DNA of 64,000 bases from a virus: IMG/VR virus record IMGVR_UViG_3300032050_000037, positions 1-64,000 of that record; one strand, given 5' to 3'. Below, in pieces: positions 12,280 through 23,335 of the stretch (its first letter is position 1; every line of letters begins with the position of its first letter). The notes beneath the pieces were generated by a model. That model ran no database searches. It was given only the letters and a program-made list of their open reading frames with translations, and was not told the DNA's origin. Position numbers and translations under genes: made by a program.

Positions 12280-14562
12280 ATGTCAACAGTAAGAATTCAG
12301 TTACGCAGAGGCACAGCAACCGAATGGACAAATGCTGATACTGCTTTAAACTCATCAGGCGGTCTTGTATTAGCTGCTGGTGAAATGGGTGTAGAGACAA
12401 ACACCAGAAAAATTAAAATTGGCGATGGTTCCACACGATGGAGCTCATTAGCATATGTAGCAGCAGACTCACCTGCAATTAGTGAGATTGCACAAGATGC
12501 AATTAATGATGCCCTTTCAATGGGTTCAGGTTTAACAAAATCTTACAACGATAATACAGATACAATTTCTATTGCAATTGATGATTCTGTTGTAGCACTT
12601 AAGTCTTATGTAGACTCTGAAGTGGGCGGATTACAAAATACAGTAACATCAGATTATGTATTAATATCAGATGTAGGAAATGCAGGAGGACCTGCAAAGT
12701 TAGATGTAGATGGAAATCTATTAGTTCCTAAATCAAGCATTATTTTAGAAGGATCATCAGCAAATGATTATGAGACAACTCTAACAGTAACAGATCCTAC
12801 AGCAGATAGAACAATTACATTGCCAGATGCTTCAGGAACTGTAGCAGTTTTAACAGGTAGCGGAGATTTAGTTATACCTGGAAATCTAACTGTAAACGGA
12901 GATACAACATCATTTAATACAGCAGAAATGCTTGTAGAAGATAATGAATTTGTATTAAATTCAAATGTTTCAACAGGAACTCCTACAGTAAGTGCTCAGA
13001 TTTCTGTAAGACGTGGATCATTAGACCCAGCATTTATTCAGTGGAATGAAACAACCGATAAATGGGTAGCAAATTATGGTGAAGCTAATGCAAAAGAAAT
13101 AGCAACACTAGACGATGTTGAATTTATGGGAGACACATCAGAAGCATATGCGGATACTCAAATAGGATATCACAATGGAATAAGTGTAAATGTTCATGGA
13201 ATAGCAGACACTTCTTTATTAGTAATACAAAATGATTTATCAACAGCAATTTCTGATCATAATTTAGATACAACAAGCGTTCATGGAATAGCAGATACAT
13301 CTGTTTTGGTTACTACATCTGACCTTTCATCAACCCTATCTTCAGCTGAAAGTTATGCAGAAACTCAAGTAACAAATCATAATTTAGATACTACAGATGT
13401 TCATGGAATATCAAATACAGCAGATTTAGCAACAAAAGGTTACGCAGATCAAGCGGTATCAGATCATAGTGGAGACACAACAAATATTCATGGTATTTCA
13501 GACACATCTGCTTTAGCAACAAAAACATATGCAGATAATGCAGTATCACAAGAAGCAATTACAACTGCATCTAATTTAGCTACAGCAGTATCAAATCATA
13601 ATAATGCTACAACTTCAGTTCATGGCATTGCGGATACATCTTTGTTAGCAACTACATCTTATGTAGATAACGCAGACTCAGATTTACAAGACTCAATAGA
13701 TCTAAAAGCACCAATTGCAAATCCAACATTTACTGGAACAGTTTCTGGCATTACAGCAACCATGGTAGGACTTGGAAACGTAGACAATACTTCTGATTTA
13801 GATAAACCAGTTTCTACCGCTACACAAACAGCATTAGATCTTAAGGCAAACCTTAATTCTCCAACATTCACAGGTACAGCAACAACAAACCATCTTGTTG
13901 TAGATGGTGACTTTACTGTAAATGGTACTAATTTTGCAGCAAGTGCAACATCTATTACAATTGAAGATAATATGGTTCAACTTGCACATCAAAATGCAGC
14001 AAATACAGTTGATCTTGGTCTTGTTGTAGCATACAACGACGGCTCAGCAAAGCATGCTGGTATTGTTCGAGATGTTTCCGAAAATAAATGGAAGCTGTTT
14101 AAAGGTGTAGCAACAGAACCTTCAACAACAGTTGATTTTACAGAAGGATCTTTAGATGATCTTAAAGTTGCAGCATTCGAAGCAACAACTGTAACACCTT
14201 CAAGCGGTGTAGTGTTCTCAGATGGAACACAAACAAAAGAGGGTGTTCCTTCAAGAACCCCGATTATTTCAAAGACCGCTGATTACACACTTTCAGCATT
14301 ATCTGAAAGAGATTCATTAATTGAAGTTGATTCTTCTTCAGCAGTAACAATTACAATTCCAACAAATTCAGCAGTAGCCTTCCCAGTCGGAACTACTCTT
14401 GATATTCTTGGAATAAATACAGGATTAATTACAATAGCAGGAGATACTGGAGTGACAGTAAATGCTACACCAGGATTAAAATTACGTACACAATGGTCAT
14501 CATGTACTCTATTTAAGCGTGGAGAAAACGCTTGGGTAGCTTACGGAGATCTAAAGGCATAG
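12280..14562 (+). CDS. Fibre protein with Mtd/hyaluronidase-type N-terminal domain
   Basis: RIQLRRGTATEW...LAAGEMGVETNTRKIKIGDG; five H-x7-HGI(A/S)(D/N)T repeats; VGLGNVDNTSDLDKPVS fibre motif. Confidence 0.75.
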   Translation: MSTVRIQLRRGTATEWTNADTALNSSGGLVLAAGEMGVETNTRKIKIGDGSTRWSSLAYVAADSPAISEIAQDAINDALSMGSGLTKSYNDNTDTISIAIDDSVVALKSYVDSEVGGLQNTVTSDYVLISDVGNAGGPAKLDVDGNLLVPKSSIILEGSSANDYETTLTVTDPTADRTITLPDASGTVAVLTGSGDLVIPGNLTVNGDTTSFNTAEMLVEDNEFVLNSNVSTGTPTVSAQISVRRGSLDPAFIQWNETTDKWVANYGEANAKEIATLDDVEFMGDTSEAYADTQIGYHNGISVNVHGIADTSLLVIQNDLSTAISDHNLDTTSVHGIADTSVLVTTSDLSSTLSSAESYAETQVTNHNLDTTDVHGISNTADLATKGYADQAVSDHSGDTTNIHGISDTSALATKTYADNAVSQEAITTASNLATAVSNHNNATTSVHGIADTSLLATTSYVDNADSDLQDSIDLKAPIANPTFTGTVSGITATMVGLGNVDNTSDLDKPVSTATQTALDLKANLNSPTFTGTATTNHLVVDGDFTVNGTNFAASATSITIEDNMVQLAHQNAANTVDLGLVVAYNDGSAKHAGIVRDVSENKWKLFKGVATEPSTTVDFTEGSLDDLKVAAFEATTVTPSSGVVFSDGTQTKEGVPSRTPIISKTADYTLSALSERDSLIEVDSSSAVTITIPTNSAVAFPVGTTLDILGINTGLITIAGDTGVTVNATPGLKLRTQWSSCTLFKRGENAWVAYGDLKA

Positions 14563-14573
14563 GAGATAAATAA

Positions 14574-15890
14574 ATGAGTAAAAGAGCTGGAAGAAAATCT
14601 CAACAGTCTAATGACTTTTTAGAGCCATATAAACCAATAATTACATCAGTTACAGATGTAGGTACAAATAGACCATTTAATGATGGGTCTGCAAGCATAG
14701 CATTTGAATTGCCAGCAGGATCTCCAGATGCGACATCTTTCACAGCAACATCTAGTCCTACTGGATTAACAATAACTGGATCTTCATCTCCATTGGTTAT
14801 GACTGGATTAGCATCAAATACTAATTATACATTTACAGTATATGCAACAAATTCTTATGGAAATTCACAAACATCAGATGCATCCTCATCTACATTAATT
14901 ACAACAGTACCATCAGCACCAGTATCTCCTTCCGTTTCTTCAACAGTTGCCGACAGGGACGATGTTTCTTGGTCAGAACCATCTAGTGGTGGTAAATCTA
15001 TTACATCATATACAGTAGTGTCTTCAGATGGACCATCTTATCAAAATATAGCAGCAACGTCATATCAAGTTTCAGAATCTGGTGGAACTACACAAAGTTA
15101 TACAATTTATGCAGTTAATGCTAATGGAACATCAGCAGGAGCATCTACAAATTCAGTAACTACATTCTTTTCTCCACCATCATTCTTTGCACCTCCAGGG
15201 TTCTTTAGCCCTCCAGGATTCTTCAGTCCTCCAGGATTCTTCAGTCCTCCAGGATTCTTCAGTCCTCCAGGATTCTTCAGTCCTCCAGGATTCTTTAGTC
15301 CTCCAGGGTTCTTTGCACCACCAAGATTTTTTGCACCTCCAGGGTTCTTTGCACCACCAAGATTTTTTGGACCTCCGTATTTTGGAGGAGGAGCCACCTG
15401 CTTACACGAAGATACACCAGTAACAGTTGTTGGTGAAAATGACTCAATTGAATATAAACCTGCAAAAGATGTTCAAGAAGGAGATTGGATATGGGCAGTG
15501 GATATAGAAGAACTAGATCCAAATGAACCAGCATATTCATCATTATTCTGGATAAGCCCTACAGCAACCTTTAATGGTTTAGTTAAAACAGAGGTTATTA
15601 ATAAATATACTTCTTTAGCTGAAGAAACAATAACCATTAATAATGATCCAAGTTCTAGATTTACAAAAGAACATCCAATGTTTATAACAAGAAATGGAGA
15701 AAATACATTCGTTTTAGCAAATAATTTGCAAATCGGTGATATTTTATCTAAGCATGATAATCAAGGCAACATATACTCAGAAACAATAAATTCTATAGAA
15801 ACTATTGTAGAAGAGTGTGCAGTGCTTACATTTAATGCTGAGCCATATGATTTAATTTATGCAAATGGCATATTAACTCATAATAAATAA
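14574..15890 (+). CDS. FN3-domain virion-type protein with FFxPPx repeats and a C-terminal Hint (intein-like) domain
   Basis: Two FN3-like units (GLASNTNYTFTVYATN; YTIYAVNANG), 12 hexapeptide repeats, then CLHEDTPV...FTKEHP...IYANGILTHNK. Confidence 0.85.
   Translation: MSKRAGRKSQQSNDFLEPYKPIITSVTDVGTNRPFNDGSASIAFELPAGSPDATSFTATSSPTGLTITGSSSPLVMTGLASNTNYTFTVYATNSYGNSQTSDASSSTLITTVPSAPVSPSVSSTVADRDDVSWSEPSSGGKSITSYTVVSSDGPSYQNIAATSYQVSESGGTTQSYTIYAVNANGTSAGASTNSVTTFFSPPSFFAPPGFFSPPGFFSPPGFFSPPGFFSPPGFFSPPGFFSPPGFFAPPRFFAPPGFFAPPRFFGPPYFGGGATCLHEDTPVTVVGENDSIEYKPAKDVQEGDWIWAVDIEELDPNEPAYSSLFWISPTATFNGLVKTEVINKYTSLAEETITINNDPSSRFTKEHPMFITRNGENTFVLANNLQIGDILSKHDNQGNIYSETINSIETIVEECAVLTFNAEPYDLIYANGILTHNK
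15165..15380 (+). repeat. Tandem 18-bp coding repeat x12, encoding FF(S/A/G)PP(G/S/R/Y)
   Basis: Read directly from the sequence; four consecutive units are the identical TTCTTCAGTCCTCCAGGA. Confidence 0.97.
15399..15890 (+). other. Hint / bacterial intein-like autoprocessing domain (163 aa)
   Basis: Block A Cys1, block B TxxH (TKEH), terminal His-Asn followed by a single Lys and the stop. Confidence 0.85.
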
Positions 15891-15954: not shown

Positions 15955-16572
15955 TTGGAAAAATTAGAAGTAGGATATGGCATATGGCTATACCGCAACG
16001 TATTTCCAGACAATCTTAATTTAATTACAAGAATAGAAAATGCTATTGATAATAGTAATGGAATTTATTCTTGGAAAGAAGCAATGGTTGGATGGAAACA
16101 AAAAATTCCAGAGTATAGAAATTGTTTAGATTTTAAAGTTTCTAAACCAAATAGTACATCAATAACTAAGAATAAAAGTTCAGTAGAAGTACAATCAATT
16201 TGGCAAGACTCCTACAATGCACAAAAAGAATGTCTAGATGATTATTGTAAAATGTATAGAATAAAATTAGATTATTGGGAATCTTTTAACTTTGTTAAGT
16301 ATGAAGAGGGCCATCATTTTGAGGAGCACTCAGATCATGGAGATGCCTATGTTTGTACTGTATCTGGAGTAGGATATCTAAATGATGATTATGAAGGTGG
16401 AGAATTATTTTTTCCAAAAATTAATATATTTATTAAACCACAAAAGGGAGATCTATACTTATTTCCATCTTCATTTATTTATTCTCATAAATCAATGCCA
16501 ATAAAGTCAGGAACTAAATACTCAATAGTTACAATGTTTGATTATAACGATAAGCACCATAAAGGACAATAA
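15955..16572 (+). CDS. 2OG-Fe(II) oxygenase (prolyl 4-hydroxylase-like)
   Basis: HSD, YLNDDYEGGEL, H...GTKY. Confidence 0.9.
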   Translation: MEKLEVGYGIWLYRNVFPDNLNLITRIENAIDNSNGIYSWKEAMVGWKQKIPEYRNCLDFKVSKPNSTSITKNKSSVEVQSIWQDSYNAQKECLDDYCKMYRIKLDYWESFNFVKYEEGHHFEEHSDHGDAYVCTVSGVGYLNDDYEGGELFFPKINIFIKPQKGDLYLFPSSFIYSHKSMPIKSGTKYSIVTMFDYNDKHHKGQ

Positions 16573-17267
16573 TGTTAAATAATGCTGAATACCTAGCCCC
16601 AGGAATTATAGTTTATAGAAATGTATTCCCAGAATCAATGAATTTAATTCAAAGATTAGAATCAGAACTTTCAAAAGAAAATAATCCTTATAAATGGAAA
16701 ACTGCAAAAACTGGGTATAATTTAGAAGATAAAAGATATAGAGATTGTGCTGATTTTAAAATTAAAAGTAACCCACAAGGTTATTTAATGTTAGGCGGAG
16801 AAAGCGTTACGCCAGAAAATAAAAAAGAAACAGAAATAGCTTTAGAAAAAGTTTGGCAAGACTCTTATAGCGCACAAATAGAACCAGTAGAAGATTATAG
16901 AAAAATATTTGGACTTGCACCATTAAATTATTGGGAATCTTTTAATTTTGTTAAGTATGGAGAGGACCAGCATTTTCAAGTACATTCAGATCACGGATAT
17001 TCTTATATTTGTGTTTTATCTTCTGTTGGATATATTAATGACGATTACGAGGGTGGAGAATTATTTTTTGATAAGTTAAATTTAAAAATTAAACCAAAAG
17101 CTGGGGATCTTTACTTATTTCCTTCATCTTATATTTACTCACACGCAGCTATGCCAGTTACAAAAGGGGTTAAATACTCTATAGTTACAATGCTAGATTA
17201 TTTAGAGGCACCACACACCCCAGAGTACAGAGAAATAGAAAAAAGATATACAGAAAATTATTTATAA
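16572..17267 (+). CDS. 2OG-Fe(II) oxygenase; close paralogue of 15955..16572
   Basis: Shares YWESFNFVKY, HSDHG, GDLYLFPSS and KYSIVTM with its neighbour. Confidence 0.9.
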   Translation: MLNNAEYLAPGIIVYRNVFPESMNLIQRLESELSKENNPYKWKTAKTGYNLEDKRYRDCADFKIKSNPQGYLMLGGESVTPENKKETEIALEKVWQDSYSAQIEPVEDYRKIFGLAPLNYWESFNFVKYGEDQHFQVHSDHGYSYICVLSSVGYINDDYEGGELFFDKLNLKIKPKAGDLYLFPSSYIYSHAAMPVTKGVKYSIVTMLDYLEAPHTPEYREIEKRYTENYL

Positions 17268-17968
17268 TGTATAAGATTAAGGCTTATAAAAATATTAATT
17301 CTGCAGATATAAAACAAATTAATATTAAAAGAGACTGGATGGACAATACTGTAGATGGACACGCATACAGATGTTTTCCAGTAACATTAGCAAATGGATT
17401 AGGATGGGGTTTATCTTTTCCTAAAGATATATCTTTTATTTGGGACGGAATTTCAGACACCTCTGGAAATCATGTAAAAATATTAGAAGGAGAAGAGTAT
17501 TGTTATACAGAAAGAGCAAATGCTACAATTAGTTTCAAAACAGGTATAATATTTGAAACAGATAAAGACGTAAGCTTACTACAAATGCCTGTCCCAAATA
17601 TGTTTATAGATGGAGCACAAGCATTTACAACAATAATGAGTACATCTTTTTTTAAAGGAGAATTTCCCTGTGCTCTAAGAATAACTAAACCGTTTACAAA
17701 AATTACAATTAAAGCTAATCAGCCGTTTATATCAATAGTACCAATATCTTTAACTAATTTACAAAATTCAATAATAGAAATTGATGATCCTAAGAATATG
17801 AAAAATAACATATCTTTAGATGAAAAAGAACACTTAGATGTTGTTAAAGAAAAAACAAAAAATGGAATATGGACCAATTTCTATAGAGATGCTGTTAATT
17901 ATAAAGGACAAAAAATAGGAGAGCATGAAGTTAAAGCAATTAGACTTTATGTTAACAATAATGAATAA
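17267..17968 (+). CDS. DUF6065-like protein
   Basis: RDWMD...HAYRCFPVTLANGLGW signature. Confidence 0.7.
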   Translation: MYKIKAYKNINSADIKQINIKRDWMDNTVDGHAYRCFPVTLANGLGWGLSFPKDISFIWDGISDTSGNHVKILEGEEYCYTERANATISFKTGIIFETDKDVSLLQMPVPNMFIDGAQAFTTIMSTSFFKGEFPCALRITKPFTKITIKANQPFISIVPISLTNLQNSIIEIDDPKNMKNNISLDEKEHLDVVKEKTKNGIWTNFYRDAVNYKGQKIGEHEVKAIRLYVNNNE

Positions 17969-18680
17969 AATAATATTTCATTCATCTAGACCTTATAATA
18001 AAAATACTGAAGAATATTTACCCGTGCCTTCAAAAACAGAAATTCCAAACTGGTTTTCTAAAGCTAGTAAATATTGGAAAAACATGGATGGTTCATATAT
18101 TGTAGATCATCTTGGTGAAAGAGGACTCGGTTTTAAATCATGCCCAGCACTTTTAGATTCATTTTCTATTGGTTATCTTTTAAAAACTCCATGTGATTTA
18201 GCATTTTATGAAAAAGATGGAGATATACATGTAGAAACCCCCAAAGGATTTGAAGAGTTTTGTGCAAGAAGAGAAGAGATGCCAGAGTTTGTAGTTCCAC
18301 ATGGATATAGAAAAACACATTTTCATTGGTGGCCAAATTGGTCAATGGAGACCCCAGAAGGATATAGCTTATTAGTTATAAATCCATTAAATAGATTTGA
18401 TTTACCATTTTTAACAACTAATGGTATTATAGATAGTGATATGTACACAATTTCAGGACTTATTCCATTTTTCTTAAAAGATAATTTTGTAGGATTAATT
18501 CCTAAAGGAACTCCATATGCACAAGTAATTCCTTTTAAAAGAGAAGACTGGAAAATGGAACCTATTTTTCATGAAAAAAGAACTATGATAAAAAAACATG
18601 TTTTTACTGCAAGAAAATTTAGAGTAAAAGGCGGAGGAATATACAAAAAAGATATTTGGAAACCAAAGAAATATGAATAA
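17961..18680 (+). CDS. DUF6065-related protein (possible dUTPase-like beta-fold)
   Basis: IPNWF...FKSCPALLD...TPEGYSLL..PLNR...IPKGTPYAQVIPFKREDW. Confidence 0.55.
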   Translation: MNKIIFHSSRPYNKNTEEYLPVPSKTEIPNWFSKASKYWKNMDGSYIVDHLGERGLGFKSCPALLDSFSIGYLLKTPCDLAFYEKDGDIHVETPKGFEEFCARREEMPEFVVPHGYRKTHFHWWPNWSMETPEGYSLLVINPLNRFDLPFLTTNGIIDSDMYTISGLIPFFLKDNFVGLIPKGTPYAQVIPFKREDWKMEPIFHEKRTMIKKHVFTARKFRVKGGGIYKKDIWKPKKYE

Positions 18681-18691
18681 AGGAGACTGTT

Positions 18692-19408
18692 ATGTTTGAA
18701 AATGCAAACGAAAAAGATATTATACAAAATTTTGATGCCGTAAATGAAAACAAAGATATTAGAACTGCTAGAAAATCAATAACCCCTTCTGGATACTTTG
18801 GTTCTTCTTCTAATATGATTCAAGAAATAGAAAATTTTTTAACTGAGGAAGAACAAGAATTTTTATTAAATTTTGCAAAAAATAATAAAATATGGGACGT
18901 AACAGAATCACATTATAATGAAAATGGAACTATTATATATGACCATAGGCCTTGGGAAAATAGAGTCGCAACTCTTAATACATTAACAAAAGCAAACCCA
19001 GAAGTAGTTTTAATGTTAAGAGAAATTATAGAAAGATTGAAACCAGTAATTGAATCTTTTTATAATGTAGAAGCTACACCTACACACCCAGCAATTGTTA
19101 GATGGCCTAAAGGTACATATCAATTCCCACATGCAGATAAAGAGTTACACGAGGGCCCAGACGCTGGAAAAGAAAATGATTTTCCATGGTATGATCTAGG
19201 AACTATTTTTTATTTAAATGATGACTACGAAGGCGGAGAACTTCATTTCCCTAAACAAAATATATCTTTTAAACCAAAAGCAAGAGCAGCATATTTTTTC
19301 CCTGGAGATTTAAATTATATACATGGAGTTAATGTAGTAAAGGAAGGATGTAGATATACATCGCCCTGGTTTTGGACTATTACAAAATTAAAGGATAAAA
19401 ATGTATAA
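18692..19408 (+). CDS. 2OG-Fe(II) oxygenase
   Basis: HAD, YLNDDYEGGEL, HGV...RY. Confidence 0.9.
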   Translation: MFENANEKDIIQNFDAVNENKDIRTARKSITPSGYFGSSSNMIQEIENFLTEEEQEFLLNFAKNNKIWDVTESHYNENGTIIYDHRPWENRVATLNTLTKANPEVVLMLREIIERLKPVIESFYNVEATPTHPAIVRWPKGTYQFPHADKELHEGPDAGKENDFPWYDLGTIFYLNDDYEGGELHFPKQNISFKPKARAAYFFPGDLNYIHGVNVVKEGCRYTSPWFWTITKLKDKNV

Positions 19409-20114
19409 TATAACAAAATATAAAGATGATGTATTTACAATAGATGATTTTTTAACTGAAGATGAGTGTAAAAGAATCATAGATTATTTGGAAATGTCAG
19501 TACAAAATAATTATATTAAATGGAACCAGATCTCATTTTATGAATCTTATGCTATGGGATTTTGGGAATATGATAATAATTTAATTCCTTTTGGATTTAA
19601 TCCAAAATATTTTCATGAGCTTAAAGAAAAAATAAAAAATGCTGGTGAAATCTGCTTTAATAATAAATTAAGCGAAATTAGTTATCATGCACAAAAATGG
19701 ACAGAGGGCGCATTTGCAGGATTCCATTCAGACAATTCAGATGAACATGGAAACCCAACGGCTTTTCAAAGAAGTAAATATGCAATTTTTTTATATCTTA
19801 ATGATAATTTTGATGGTGGTAATTTAAACTTTGAACACTATCCAATTAACATAAAACCAAAAGTAGGAATGTTAGCGGTTTTTAAAGGCGGATATAAAAA
19901 TGAACATGAAGTAACAACAGTTAAAAATGGTGAAAGGTATACTATTGGATCATTTTGGGATGACGCAGACGCAGTCTACACAGATGAAGAAAAAGCTAAA
20001 TGGGAAGTTGAATTAAAAGAAACAAGAGCTGGTCAAGAAGTTATGTATAAAAAATGGAAATCTGATAAAGAAAATGGAATAGTTCCAACTTATAAAAGTA
20101 AGTATGAAAACTAA
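19401..20114 (+). CDS. 2OG-Fe(II) oxygenase
   Basis: HSD, YLNDNFDGGNL, HEV...ERY. Confidence 0.9.
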   Translation: MYNITKYKDDVFTIDDFLTEDECKRIIDYLEMSVQNNYIKWNQISFYESYAMGFWEYDNNLIPFGFNPKYFHELKEKIKNAGEICFNNKLSEISYHAQKWTEGAFAGFHSDNSDEHGNPTAFQRSKYAIFLYLNDNFDGGNLNFEHYPINIKPKVGMLAVFKGGYKNEHEVTTVKNGERYTIGSFWDDADAVYTDEEKAKWEVELKETRAGQEVMYKKWKSDKENGIVPTYKSKYEN

Positions 20115-20125
20115 CAGGAGAAAAC

Positions 20126-20944
20126 ATGAGCAATAATATGGAAAGAATAGTATTATATCCAAAGGTAGAGGTATATAGAAATTTATTAAATAACGTAAAT
20201 GATTTATATGAAACTATGAAGGAATCAGAAAAAACATCAGACGGAAAATATTATTTAAGAAAATGGGATAAATGGTCGGTTTTTGGAACTTATACTCAAC
20301 AAAAACACGAGGAGTCAGAGCCAAGAGAATACGGTCAAATGTACGATAGAGAAAAACTATTATCTGATGAAGTTTATAAAGCGTATAACATTGCAATAGA
20401 TGCATATATAAAAAATAATAATGTTGTCATGCCAGAAGGAGCTCAATTAATGTCTTCTTCATTCTCTAAATATAAAAAAGACTTAGATGTTTTAGAAAAT
20501 AATTTAGCCATGCAGTACCATACAGATTTTAAAATTTTTGAATCAGAGTGGCCAGGGTCAAAATTTTTTCTAACATGTACAACTTACATTAATGATGATT
20601 ATGAGGGTGGAGATATTGAATTTTTTATAAATGGAGAATTTGTTTCTCACAAACCAAAAGCAGGAGACATTTTAGTTTTTCCTTCTATCCCTCCATATTT
20701 TCATGGAGTTAAAACAATTAAAAGAGGAGAAAAGTTTTTTGTAAGAAATTTTATCACATATCTTTCTGAGGGTTCTAGATCTTGGTTAGAGAATCAAAAA
20801 ATATACGGACCAAGAGAATGGCTTCAGATGGAAGAAGATAGAATTAAAAGAGAGATGCCAGAAGCAATGCTTTATTTTGAAAATGGAAAACAGATACAAT
20901 ATTCAGAGAAAATAAAAAATAATGAAAATAACAACATTAAATGA
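20126..20944 (+). CDS. 2OG-Fe(II) oxygenase
   Basis: HTD, YINDDYEGGDI, HGV...K. Confidence 0.9.
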   Translation: MSNNMERIVLYPKVEVYRNLLNNVNDLYETMKESEKTSDGKYYLRKWDKWSVFGTYTQQKHEESEPREYGQMYDREKLLSDEVYKAYNIAIDAYIKNNNVVMPEGAQLMSSSFSKYKKDLDVLENNLAMQYHTDFKIFESEWPGSKFFLTCTTYINDDYEGGDIEFFINGEFVSHKPKAGDILVFPSIPPYFHGVKTIKRGEKFFVRNFITYLSEGSRSWLENQKIYGPREWLQMEEDRIKREMPEAMLYFENGKQIQYSEKIKNNENNNIK

Positions 20945-21524
20945 TAATATTATTTACTATCAGAGTTTAATAAATGATATAGATAATTTTATTAATTTAA
21001 TAAATAATATAGAAGAAGAATATGTTTATCTTTTTTCTAAATGGGAAAAATGGTATGCCAGCAATGCAGATGTTTTATATGGAGAATCTAGAGAATCTTC
21101 TTTTAGTAGTATATTAAATAATTGTAAAAAGGAATCAGATTCTTTTTTTATTGCAAAAACTATCAAAGAATTAGTAGATTTTTGCATTAAAGATTATTGT
21201 GAAAAAACAAAACAGGTCCCAGGATATTTGCCAGATCATTTTACAATTAAAAAATATAATACCGATGCATATATGGGTCCACATGTAGATACCGAAGATT
21301 TATTTGATAAAAAACAACCATCTATATCTATGGTTTTTTATTTAAATGATGATTACGAGGGGGGAGAAATAGAGTTCCCTAATCAGCAAATCAAAATAAA
21401 GCCAGAAGCTGGAAGTTTAATTATATTCCCGTCCTATCAACCATATATACATGACCCAAAACCAGTTTTATCTGGAACCAAATACATGATACCTCTTTTT
21501 TGGTTTAAAGAAAAGTTTTGGTAG
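20922..21524 (+). CDS. 2OG-Fe(II) oxygenase
   Basis: HVD, YLNDDYEGGEI, H...GTKY. Confidence 0.9.
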   Translation: MKITTLNDNIIYYQSLINDIDNFINLINNIEEEYVYLFSKWEKWYASNADVLYGESRESSFSSILNNCKKESDSFFIAKTIKELVDFCIKDYCEKTKQVPGYLPDHFTIKKYNTDAYMGPHVDTEDLFDKKQPSISMVFYLNDDYEGGEIEFPNQQIKIKPEAGSLIIFPSYQPYIHDPKPVLSGTKYMIPLFWFKEKFW

Positions 21525-21556: not shown

Positions 21557-23335
21557 ATGTCTTATAAAAATGTAATTGTAAAAGACTCACCAATAGGATA
21601 CTGGCCGCTGTCTGAAAATACTGGCACAACTATAATAGATGAATCTGGATGCAATAATAATGGAACAGCGTCAAGTTTAAGCGTAGTAAAAATACCACTA
21701 GTTTCAGACGGATCATCAGTAGCTAGGCTGATGTCAGATTCAGTATATTTAATATTTAATACATTAAATAGCTATTCTCAAGAATCACTAACGGTTCCTG
21801 GATTTGCAAACAAATATTCATCTGACAATGATTTTAGTTTAGAGTGTTGGGTATATCCACAAATATCTGACCTATCAGAAATTGCAATCCTAGCAGATAT
21901 AGATAATGAAATAGGAATTTTTTGGGATCAGGGAAATATAGTATTTAAATTAAATAGTGAAACGTTGTCATATACAATCCCAGACTTTAATCAAGCATTG
22001 CACATAGTTGCCACATATTCTGTAGACAGAATGTCTATTTATTTAAATGGAAGTTTGGCTGTATTCAAAACATTAGAAAGTTTTTCTTTTTCAAATACAT
22101 CTCTTGAAATACAATCTGGACCAATAGATGGAGACGATAATTATTTTATTTTAGATAATGTAGCAATATATAGATATGCTTTAAACGAAAATCAAATTTT
22201 AAACCATTATTCGTATACTGGATATACCATACCATATCAAGTTGTAATACCAGACGACGGAGAACTTTTTGAATTTGTAGATAGTCAGATGAATAAAACT
22301 TTTACATATTCATACCCATACAATAAATCATGGGAAGGATTTTTAAATGAAGATGTGGTGTTAAATAGATCAGAAAATTATATAGAAATATTAAAAACAA
22401 ATACTGTTGAAAATAAAGAATTTATAATAGAAGATATAATTTCTATACCATCAGCAATACCAATGGACTCATCAAAAATAGAATGGGCTGGACACAATGG
22501 CATTTCTGTAGAAACAAGTATAGATGGAATTACTTATGAACAATGTGTTAATGGACAATCAATACCTCAATTTTTAACAAGTAGCTTTAGCGATTCAAAA
22601 GTTATTTATTTAAAAATTACTATGTCGTCTACCGACACGTCGAAGTATTGTCCAAAACTATATAGCCTAACAATATCATTCTATAATCAGCAAATAATGT
22701 ATTCTAGAAATGGAAATAGCTATTTATCAAAAGTTGAAGATTGCGACGCATACCTAGGGACAGAAAAACACCCAATATCTTTTAGAAATAATAAAAATGG
22801 AATCTTGGTTCCACTAGATTCAGGATTTAAGATAAATACAGATAAGCTAGTAAAATCAATAGAATTTTTCTATACGCCATACGATAACTTTCTTTCTGGT
22901 CCATCAACTATACCAGGATCAATAATTAATGTCGCTTTATTTGGAGACGGGGAAGCAGCAAGTTATTCATGGGATAATGGATTTACAATATCCAAAACCA
23001 ATATAGAATCATTATATGTGAACACAGTAGACTATACAAGCGAAACCAATATGTCATATATATTTGCCCCAGGAAATCTACACCATGTAGTAATTTCATT
23101 TTCTGACTCAGTAACTGGAGAATTAATTTTTAATATAAATCAAGGGGATGGACCTAAAGCCCTATACCAAAATCTATCCCTATATACAGAAACCTTAGAC
23201 TATAATAAAATTAAAAACCACTATAGTCTATATTTAGGAAAGTCTACCTATACAGCAGAAACTTCTGCCACCAACCTGTCAGAAAATTCAGTAAATTTAT
23301 ATAATAATGACTGGCTTGTGATACAAAACTCATAA
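21557..23335 (+). CDS. LamG/concanavalin-A-like domain structural protein
   Basis: DSPIGYWPLSE, FSLECW, HIVATY...IYLNG and LDNVAIY LamG pattern. Confidence 0.75.
   Translation: MSYKNVIVKDSPIGYWPLSENTGTTIIDESGCNNNGTASSLSVVKIPLVSDGSSVARLMSDSVYLIFNTLNSYSQESLTVPGFANKYSSDNDFSLECWVYPQISDLSEIAILADIDNEIGIFWDQGNIVFKLNSETLSYTIPDFNQALHIVATYSVDRMSIYLNGSLAVFKTLESFSFSNTSLEIQSGPIDGDDNYFILDNVAIYRYALNENQILNHYSYTGYTIPYQVVIPDDGELFEFVDSQMNKTFTYSYPYNKSWEGFLNEDVVLNRSENYIEILKTNTVENKEFIIEDIISIPSAIPMDSSKIEWAGHNGISVETSIDGITYEQCVNGQSIPQFLTSSFSDSKVIYLKITMSSTDTSKYCPKLYSLTISFYNQQIMYSRNGNSYLSKVEDCDAYLGTEKHPISFRNNKNGILVPLDSGFKINTDKLVKSIEFFYTPYDNFLSGPSTIPGSIINVALFGDGEAASYSWDNGFTISKTNIESLYVNTVDYTSETNMSYIFAPGNLHHVVISFSDSVTGELIFNINQGDGPKALYQNLSLYTETLDYNKIKNHYSLYLGKSTYTAETSATNLSENSVNLYNNDWLVIQNS

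Follow-up and report, generated by a model that had tools for sequence, protein, structure and literature searches.

A BIL-like Hint domain at the end of a viral fibre-associated protein: a candidate self-removing cap

Introduction

What can a Hint domain do when its protein stops one residue after the domain's last asparagine? The question is raised by a gene in the window, by which we mean the whole stretch of DNA analysed here: the first 64 kb of the 113,072-bp IMG/VR virus record IMGVR_UViG_3300032050_000037, a record rated complete. An initial annotation, made from the letters of the DNA, read the end of this gene as a Hint domain that cannot splice canonically. It listed several fates for the protein ahead of the domain: attachment to another virion protein, to a lipid or to a host surface molecule, or release from a domain that acts as a self-removing chaperone.

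To our knowledge, self-removing C-terminal domains in phage fibre maturation are known only with the S74 chaperone fold. A literature search turned up no publication that deals with Hint domains in phage fibre proteins. If self-removal is true here, intein-like thioester chemistry would be a second, unrelated and new solution for fibre maturation.

Results

We located the elements of the gene and of its surroundings on the DNA (Table 1). A Cys1 behind GGGAT, a TxxH motif and a terminal His-Asn had been claimed for the protein and all three are present; the 162 residues from Cys276 to Asn437 have the size of a mini-intein. The Lys at +1, followed by the stop, is also there, and the exact Asn-Lys-stop end recurs in 39 of the 135 C-terminal domains of the family described below. 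The gene that follows has its own start in a different frame. Four-step splicing is thus impossible for this domain, because the protein offers no +1 Cys, Ser or Thr, no real C-extein and no insertion in the conserved site of a housekeeping protein: the domain cannot splice in the normal way.

Table 1. Features of the Hint gene and its neighbours in the window
Feature	Position	Strand	Details
Upstream fibre gene, 760 aa, Mtd_N domain	12280..14562	+	Pfam Mtd_N E 1.8e-12
FN3/repeat/Hint gene	14574..15890	+	438 aa, 46.7 kDa
Basic N-terminal peptide, consensus MSKRxGRKSQxxNDFLEP	14574..14639	+	family conservation; putative docking role
Two FN3-type domains	14679..15164	+	Pfam fn3 E 1e-7, 2 stretches, best residues 36-105
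FFxPPx hexapeptide x12, residues 198-270	15165..15383	+	18-bp tandem array
Gly-rich hinge GGGAT (G271-G272-G273-A274-T275)	15384..15398	+	last five residues before predicted scissile Thr275-Cys276 bond
Hint domain Cys276-Asn437	15399..15884	+	162 aa, 18.2 kDa
Cys276, Hint position 1, predicted thioester nucleophile	15399..15401 (TGC)	+	
Block B T364-K-E-H367	15663..15674	+	
His436-Asn437-Lys438 (protein end T435-H436-N437-K438)	15879..15887	+	TAA stop 15888-15890
Six 2OG-FeII_Oxy_3 oxygenases, DUF6065, one further ORF	15955..21524	+	downstream battery

The part of the protein that precedes the Hint domain begins with the basic peptide MSKRAGRKSQQSNDFLEP. A PHROG minor tail protein match covers residues 105-197, and the FFxPPx repeat is encoded by a tandem array that TRF places at 15182-15376 (period 18, 85% matches); orthologues carry roughly 7-35 units. 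We considered a collagen-like triple helix for this repeat and rejected it: Gly does not occupy every third residue, and Arg, Leu and Val are found at the 'Gly' position. The window genome has a single Hint. An Atlas cluster that combines LamG with Hint had suggested a second one on the LamG protein at 21557-23335, an idea that we dropped since the sequence has no such end. Further along the phage genome, HK97-type portal, protease and capsid genes are present.

We then asked how firmly the fold can be assigned. Searched alone, the window protein matched Pfam Intein_splicing at 26.7 bits, below the 35.8-bit cut-off; its best PDB sequence match had an E of 0.04, and AF2 from the single sequence gave a pLDDT of 33. 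With an alignment of Hint domains (A1, 69 rows), AF2 modelled the last 169 residues at a pLDDT of 93.8 and a pTM of 0.89, and the model bore out the Hint fold proposed by the initial annotation. It is a continuous Hint fold with a short insert only and no endonuclease domain, as expected from the reported absence of a homing endonuclease. The suggested kinship with Hint and BIL domains also emerged when the family profile was run against the PDB, where it matched both BIL and intein chains: the C. thermocellum BIL 2lwy came first (E 3.5e-10, 43.1 bits), ahead of many mini-inteins at 1e-8 to 1e-6 (35-38 bits, a margin of ~5 bits). Foldseek with the Hint model returned 56 matches at E <= 1e-3, with Tetrahymena BIL2 first (E 4.8e-8) and the RadA intein, the Cth BIL, NpuDnaB and Hedgehog among the other top matches. 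By VIA-align, the Z values were 18.6 for BIL2, ~17.8-17.9 for the RecA intein, 17.8 for Hedgehog and 17.5 for the Cth BIL (rmsd 1.7-2.1 A over 132-138 residues), so that BIL, intein and Hedgehog matches are tied within 1. The modelled Hint fold of the C-terminal domain is certain, with a match far beyond chance. Neither PHROGs nor NCBIfam returned an informative family for the Hint part; Pfam PT-HINT (PF07591) gave weak profile matches to 6 of the 69 alignment members only, and searches of the window protein in Pfam, PHROG and NCBIfam returned no S74 match.

An exhaustive HMMER search at E <= 1e-3 recovered 213 cluster representatives, and scanning viral contigs confirmed 222 relatives encoded on them. 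The Atlas neighbours of the Hint protein are nearly all viral and carry FN3, LamG or DUF642 in their N-parts; by these sequence neighbours the family is large and almost wholly viral. A tblastn search of the window protein in 50,697 deposited phage genomes gave no match at E 1e-5. In the source databases the relatives are named 'hypothetical protein'; in BFVD, some relatives bear the automatic names 'Hint domain containing protein' or 'Fibronectin type III'.

Which positions does this family keep? We counted residues in 143 full-length domains aligned to one HMM, and tails in 135 C-terminal domains whose last residue is Asn or Asp; both sets are cluster representatives and fetched loci of common ancestry, not independent samples. 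Position 1 is Cys in 137 domains and Ser in 5 (142/143 together), and the first residue of block B is Thr or Ser in all 143. The fourth is His in 63, Gln in 51 and Glu in 29: the intact TxxH stressed by the initial annotation holds for the window protein, but the block-B His is Gln or Glu in 80 of the 143 relatives, so the chemistry may differ from that of textbook inteins. An acidic residue ahead of the last strands is Asp in 108/143, the penultimate residue is His in 118 and Tyr in 19, and the last Hint residue is Asn in 135 and Asp in 3. Tails after the Hint domain mostly measure 1-10 residues and often read x-K-x-aromatic. The +1 residue is Lys in 51 of the 135 tails and Ser or Thr in only 6; another 50 have Lys at +2. 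The one-residue C-extein is therefore real, but Lys438 is no accident, since 101 of 135 relatives have Lys at +1 or +2.

These residues vary together. The main set combines Cys, His or Gln, Asp, His-Asn and Lys; a second combines Cys, Glu, Gly, Tyr-Asn and Gly-Cys; a third, small set pairs Ser1 with Phe/Tyr-Asp. From these sets and the residue counts, His-Asn-Lys-stop is the signature of the family's commonest flavour and no truncation. The co-variation suggests, at the level of sequence, that the C-terminal junction is part of the functional active site, and the conservation of His-Asn-(x)-Lys likewise argues for the involvement of this junction in the reaction. Asn and Lys would not be expected to be so strongly conserved if hydrolysis alone accounted for the outcome.

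With Asn and Lys both conserved, resolution of the thioester by Lys is a serious variant. Lys438 would attack the Thr275 thioester through its alpha-amine after Asn437 cyclisation, or through its epsilon-amine before cyclisation, in a BIL-type splicing onto a mini C-extein; the Hint domain would be excised and the mature protein would gain a Lys, or in relatives a short x-K-x-aromatic peptide. Several observations speak for it: the frequency of Lys at +1 or +2 (101/135), an Asn kept in 135/143 despite a tail of 1-10 residues, the co-variation of the junction with active-site residues, and tandem poly-Hint proteins that keep Lys +1 ahead of further sequence (HNK-GGGG-C). There are also precedents. 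Type-A BILs keep His-Asn and lack the +1 nucleophile; cleavage predominates in them, and ligation is possible if an amine released by Asn cyclisation goes on to attack the thioester (PMC4031507; PMC7765530). BIL2, our best structural match, forms an isopeptide with a Lys epsilon-amine (PMC8616854). However, a single freed lysine would probably diffuse off before it attacks, Lys amines are weak nucleophiles at neutral pH, and a quarter of the domains have Lys at neither +1 nor +2. We keep ligation onto Lys as a tentative alternative and lean against it.

The family counts also bear on two readings in which the domain does no work as a catalyst. The first sees the domain as a selfish or decaying mini-intein that was left behind at the gene end, for instance by truncation of a former C-extein. 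Its size, its motifs and the sub-threshold Intein_splicing match would fit, but 39 cluster representatives have the same N-K-stop end, a +1 nucleophile (Ser/Thr) is present in only 6/135, and the architecture is common to over 200 viral relatives, with conserved synteny. We estimated dN/dS from four orthologues with dS near 1 and obtained 0.10-0.27 for the Hint part and 0.16-0.27 for the FN3 part. One stop codon at the junction would be enough to delete the domain without cost; that the domain persists means that it must pay its way. Such purifying selection excludes a stranded or decaying intein in our judgement, and we give that origin next to no chance.

The second is a non-catalytic Hint that is retained as a structural or receptor-binding tip, with its conserved residues serving structure. 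A few relatives do have altered ends (L073 is without His-Asn; L030, L071 and L072 have Ser1 and Phe/Tyr-Asp), and the Hint part is as conserved as the FN3 part. In inteins, Ser1 and a terminal Asp are still potentially catalytic. Moreover, conservation is concentrated at catalytic positions, namely nucleophile 1 (142/143) and the terminal Asn (135/143), and receptor-binding tips usually vary fast, whereas dN/dS here is about 0.1. A retained, inert tip is very improbable. Taken together, the fold, the conservation of Cys1 and Asn, the rarity of a +1 nucleophile and the purifying selection uphold the view that this is an autoprocessing Hint of the BIL or Hedgehog kind and no canonical intein.

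What would the protein look like without its Hint domain? Among the fetched loci, 11 have a Hint-less orthologue at the same place, with a stop 2-25 residues past the last repeat. Five end in ...PPGFWD-stop (L049, L050, L066, L077, L078), one in ...TVFSI-stop (L081), one in a 25-residue tail (L064) and three in a four-Cys tail of 18-20 residues (L045, L046, L060). In L049, the next gene begins ~90 nt past the stop. In a maximum-likelihood tree of the N-part, the Hint-less forms are neighbours of Hint-bearing proteins at four or more supported positions (96/89, 95/84, 100/99 and 100/99), which indicates that the Hint domain was lost repeatedly, at least four times. We rejected the idea that these are 'empty alleles', as their ends differ from the predicted spliced product of the nearest Hint-bearing relatives.

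The Hint-less proteins are what N-terminal cleavage would leave, and to judge from their sequences they are the best evidence available for a mature protein that ends with the repeat. They show that the Hint domain is dispensable, which is no proof of its removal from the proteins that have it. They also weigh against ligation onto Lys, as they end without Lys or tail motifs.

The same orthologues bear on acyl transfer to an outside nucleophile, by which the C-terminus of the FN3-repeat protein would be coupled to a virion protein, a lipid or an amine or hydroxyl on the host surface. Hedgehog with cholesterol (PMC7765530) and BIL2 with Lys (PMC8616854) are precedents, and the N-parts of the family (FN3, PASTA, LamG, DUF642) are adhesin-like. 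But since at least four lineages hold a Hint-less form at the same locus, covalent coupling through the thioester seems inessential; no sterol-recognition-like extension or other adaptor follows the Hint domain, and a thioester is unlikely to survive for long in free virions. The gene neighbourhood adds a point on either side of this transfer.

We examined where the Hint gene stands relative to the fibre. A homologous fibre C-terminal part ends no more than 700 nt upstream of it in 60 of the 65 loci with enough upstream sequence. In two independent contigs (L099 and L109), the fibre C-terminal domain and the Hint protein form one ORF: a fibre-like domain with homology to the final 100 residues of the window fibre (E 1.4e-14) is followed by Thr-rich linkers, Cys-rich modules, FFPP repeats and a Hint domain that ends in HNK. 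These fusions link the Hint protein physically to the fibre's distal end and make the Hint domain the outermost tip. A host-facing position of this kind would suit transfer to a host molecule, but the same topology speaks against coupling to the fibre itself. We consider outside transfer distinctly unlikely. Among the fates first listed for the protein, self-removal of the Hint domain thus fits best, with Hint-less orthologues that end at the repeat/Hint junction, while attachment to a virion protein is disfavoured by the fibre-Hint fusions.

The N-terminal peptide is conserved family-wide and is common to Hint-bearing and Hint-less orthologues; it may be the docking end toward the fibre. Some relatives, reached through the PASTA-type member P0004, have a second pair beyond the oxygenase block, in which a fibre homologue is followed by a protein with PASTA, FFPP repeat and Hint; some P0004-type relatives have a third Hint protein. 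Homologues of the 2OG oxygenases lie downstream in 75 of 75 related loci. Their best solved match is prolyl 4-hydroxylase, and they possibly act on the PPG-rich repeat.

Discussion

Our preferred reading of the sequence evidence, with a probability of about 0.6, is that a fibre-associated protein carries a type-A-BIL-like Hint cap at its distal end and that this cap removes itself by thioester chemistry. The N-terminal peptide would dock to the fibre encoded upstream, the two FN3 domains and the Phe/Pro-rich repeat would extend outward, and the Hint domain would close the chain. After folding, Cys276 would attack the Thr275 carbonyl in an N-S acyl shift. Resolution of the thioester would then release an 18.3-kDa Hint domain and leave a 28.4-kDa mature protein that ends at or next to the repeat. 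The resolving agent may be water or, as in type-A BILs, a Lys amine freed by Asn437 cyclisation. What the cap is for is the weakest step: it might be a folding aid or cover for the hydrophobic repeat at the fibre tip, by analogy with the chaperone of T5 pb1, a protein that sheds its C-terminal chaperone by autoproteolysis (PMC4690869). The Hint cap would then be a counterpart, with other chemistry, of the self-cleaving C-terminal intramolecular chaperone in T5 pb1 and K1F-type fibres.

A broader alternative is that the Hint domain at the distal tip is a ligase that passes its thioester to an amine, either the conserved Lys at +1 or +2 or a nucleophile on the host surface. We rate this as unlikely, and each form would have its own consequence. 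With Lys as the acceptor, the domain would represent a Hint class that splices through lysine; with a host-surface nucleophile, phage adsorption would be covalent and irreversible.

Self-removal of the cap, if true, would extend BIL biology from bacterial surface proteins to virions, in a Hint family that is spread over hundreds of uncultured phages. The His-Asn-Lys end offers a handle on how a thioester is resolved when Cys, Ser and Thr are missing as acceptors. The locus contributes a separate-gene form beside the fibre, fibre fusions, repeated losses, co-varying active-site flavours and an oxygenase context; it thereby provides a natural comparison set of Hint-bearing, Hint-less and fibre-fused versions, near prolyl-hydroxylase-like genes and with a PPG-rich repeat. 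Small self-cleaving domains with a one-residue scar could also be of practical use as tags in protein engineering.

Comparison with known Hint systems and S74

How does this domain relate to the systems already known? It shares fold, size, Cys1, TxxH and His-Asn with class-1 mini-inteins (Npu DnaB, Mtu RecA, Pho RadA). Unlike canonical inteins, it has neither a homing endonuclease nor the +1 residue, C-extein and conserved housekeeping insertion site discussed above, and it closes a gene, behind a low-complexity repeat. The Hedgehog autoprocessing domain (1at0, Z 17.8) is likewise a C-terminal Hint behind a Gly-rich junction and releases the N-terminal functional part through a thioester, but its Hint lacks the terminal His-Asn and is followed by a sterol-recognition region. 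In pretoxin HINT proteins (PF07591), the Hint is a releasing module, as is predicted here; however, PT-HINT precedes a toxin domain, whereas only a Lys follows the window Hint.

The S74 chaperone of T5 pb1 and of the K1F endosialidase (PMC4690869) is also a distal C-terminal self-cleaving domain, and we propose it as a functional analogue only. The S74 fold is different, a trimeric alpha/beta structure with a coiled coil and Ser-Lys type chemistry, and it gave no sequence or structure match to the window Hint in our searches. Hint domains are normally monomeric, which counts against the analogy with a trimeric chaperone. Accordingly, the window Hint lacks defining features of canonical inteins, the Hedgehog Hog domain, pretoxin HINT and S74 alike.

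The closest structural match is BIL2 of Tetrahymena BUBL (6tmm/6y75; Z 18.6, rmsd 1.8 A, 138 residues), which passes its N-extein to a Lys amine in place of Cys, Ser or Thr (PMC8616854). Unlike the window Hint, which has next to nothing behind it, BIL2 lies with one ubiquitin-like domain on either side, in a polyubiquitin-like locus of a eukaryote; the sequence identity is 19%.

The type-A BIL domain of C. thermocellum (2lwy) superposes on the window model with a Z of 17.5 (rmsd 1.7 A, 132 residues). Type-A BIL domains are reportedly the subject of work by Amitai in 2003 and by Dassa in 2004. The window family differs from the bacterial ones: it is viral, it lies at the extreme C-terminus with a tail of mostly 1-10 residues, it has Lys at +1 or +2, and its block-B His is often Gln or Glu. 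The similarities are a Hint fold, Cys1, a C-terminal His-Asn, no +1 nucleophile and a location in proteins of the variable surface or adhesin type. Thus, while sequence does not place the domain clearly inside BIL-A, it has the features by which type-A BIL domains are described.

The fibre end and a Hint protein are fused on two related contigs

The Hint protein gene lies directly downstream from a gene that encodes a 760-aa fibre. On two related viral contigs, L099 and L109, a fibre end and a Hint protein are joined in a single ORF. Each fusion ORF combines a homologue of the C-terminal domain of the window fibre with linkers rich in Thr, Cys-rich modules that recur, FFPP repeats, and a Hint domain that ends in His-Asn-Lys (HNK). 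These ORFs are Rosetta-stone fusions that connect the fibre with the Hint protein.

Coordinates of the features in the window and of the fusion ORFs on related contigs
Feature	Position	Details
ORF, 644 aa	4801-6735	ribonucleotide reductase (RNR) model matches in short stretches alone: residues 17-42 and 141-216
Window fibre protein	12280-14562	Mtd_N domain; HGI(A/S)(D/N)T-centred motif in at least 5 copies
N-terminal peptide of Hint protein	14574-14639	M-S/A-K-R/K-x-G-R-K-S-x-x-x-N-D-F-L-E-P
Hexapeptide array of Hint protein	15182-15376	85% DNA self-identity
2OG oxygenase block	15955-21524	six ORFs with Pfam 2OG-FeII_Oxy_3 matches, interspersed with a DUF6065 ORF and an unassigned ORF
Fibre-Hint fusion ORF	L099:5080-7737	single ORF
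Fibre-Hint fusion ORF	L109:3560-6478	single ORF

A fibre homologue also precedes a Hint protein elsewhere. The related loci L082-L093, L106, and L107 carry a second gene pair 3' of the oxygenase block (for example, L082:6875-8912). The first gene of the pair encodes a short fibre homologue, and the second encodes a ∼325-aa protein that combines PASTA, an FFPP repeat, and a Hint domain terminating in HNK-stop. In some loci (L110, L113, L114, and L120), a third, larger protein with a Hint end was found upstream.

The N-terminal peptide of the Hint protein is common to orthologues with and without Hint, and the PASTA-type paralogues also begin with a related basic peptide. Possibly, it serves as a docking peptide for the fibre.

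Hint variants and other ORFs

Tandem Hint domains, two to five per protein, were observed in seven non-phage-like database proteins (P0018, P0054, P0076, P0092, P0113, P0136, and P0151). The Hint domains of these proteins are connected solely by HNK-GGGG-C linkers, in which the Lys at +1 is retained. By eye, some start with an apparent signal peptide, and P0018 has a Tim44-like domain at its C-terminal end. In a second catalytic flavour of the family, block B contains Glu, the late Asp is replaced by Gly, and Tyr-Asn precedes Gly-Cys. Hint ends of this flavour occur in L020, L023, L033, L036, L039, L044, L067, L068, L076, and L080, with longer tails (up to ∼35 aa) that are acidic in some cases.

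Orthologues differ in the length of the hexapeptide array, which ranges from about 7 to about 35 units, and the antisense ORF at 15107-15397 (96 aa) is probably an artefact of this repeat. Elsewhere in the window, the 644-aa ORF may encode a very divergent or rearranged RNR.

The repeat protein is followed by an oxygenase block

The oxygenase block lies 3' of the repeat protein in all 75 of 75 related loci, including those where the orthologue ends soon after the repeat and lacks Hint. In the L143-L149 clade, the repeat is FSPFG, without Pro-Pro, and just one or two oxygenase homologues are found within 8 kb. The closest solved relatives of ORF 16572 are Bacillus anthracis prolyl 4-hydroxylase (P4H) chains (E 7e-8). 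Pro-Pro-Gly, the classic P4H substrate motif, is abundant in the repeat of the Hint protein.
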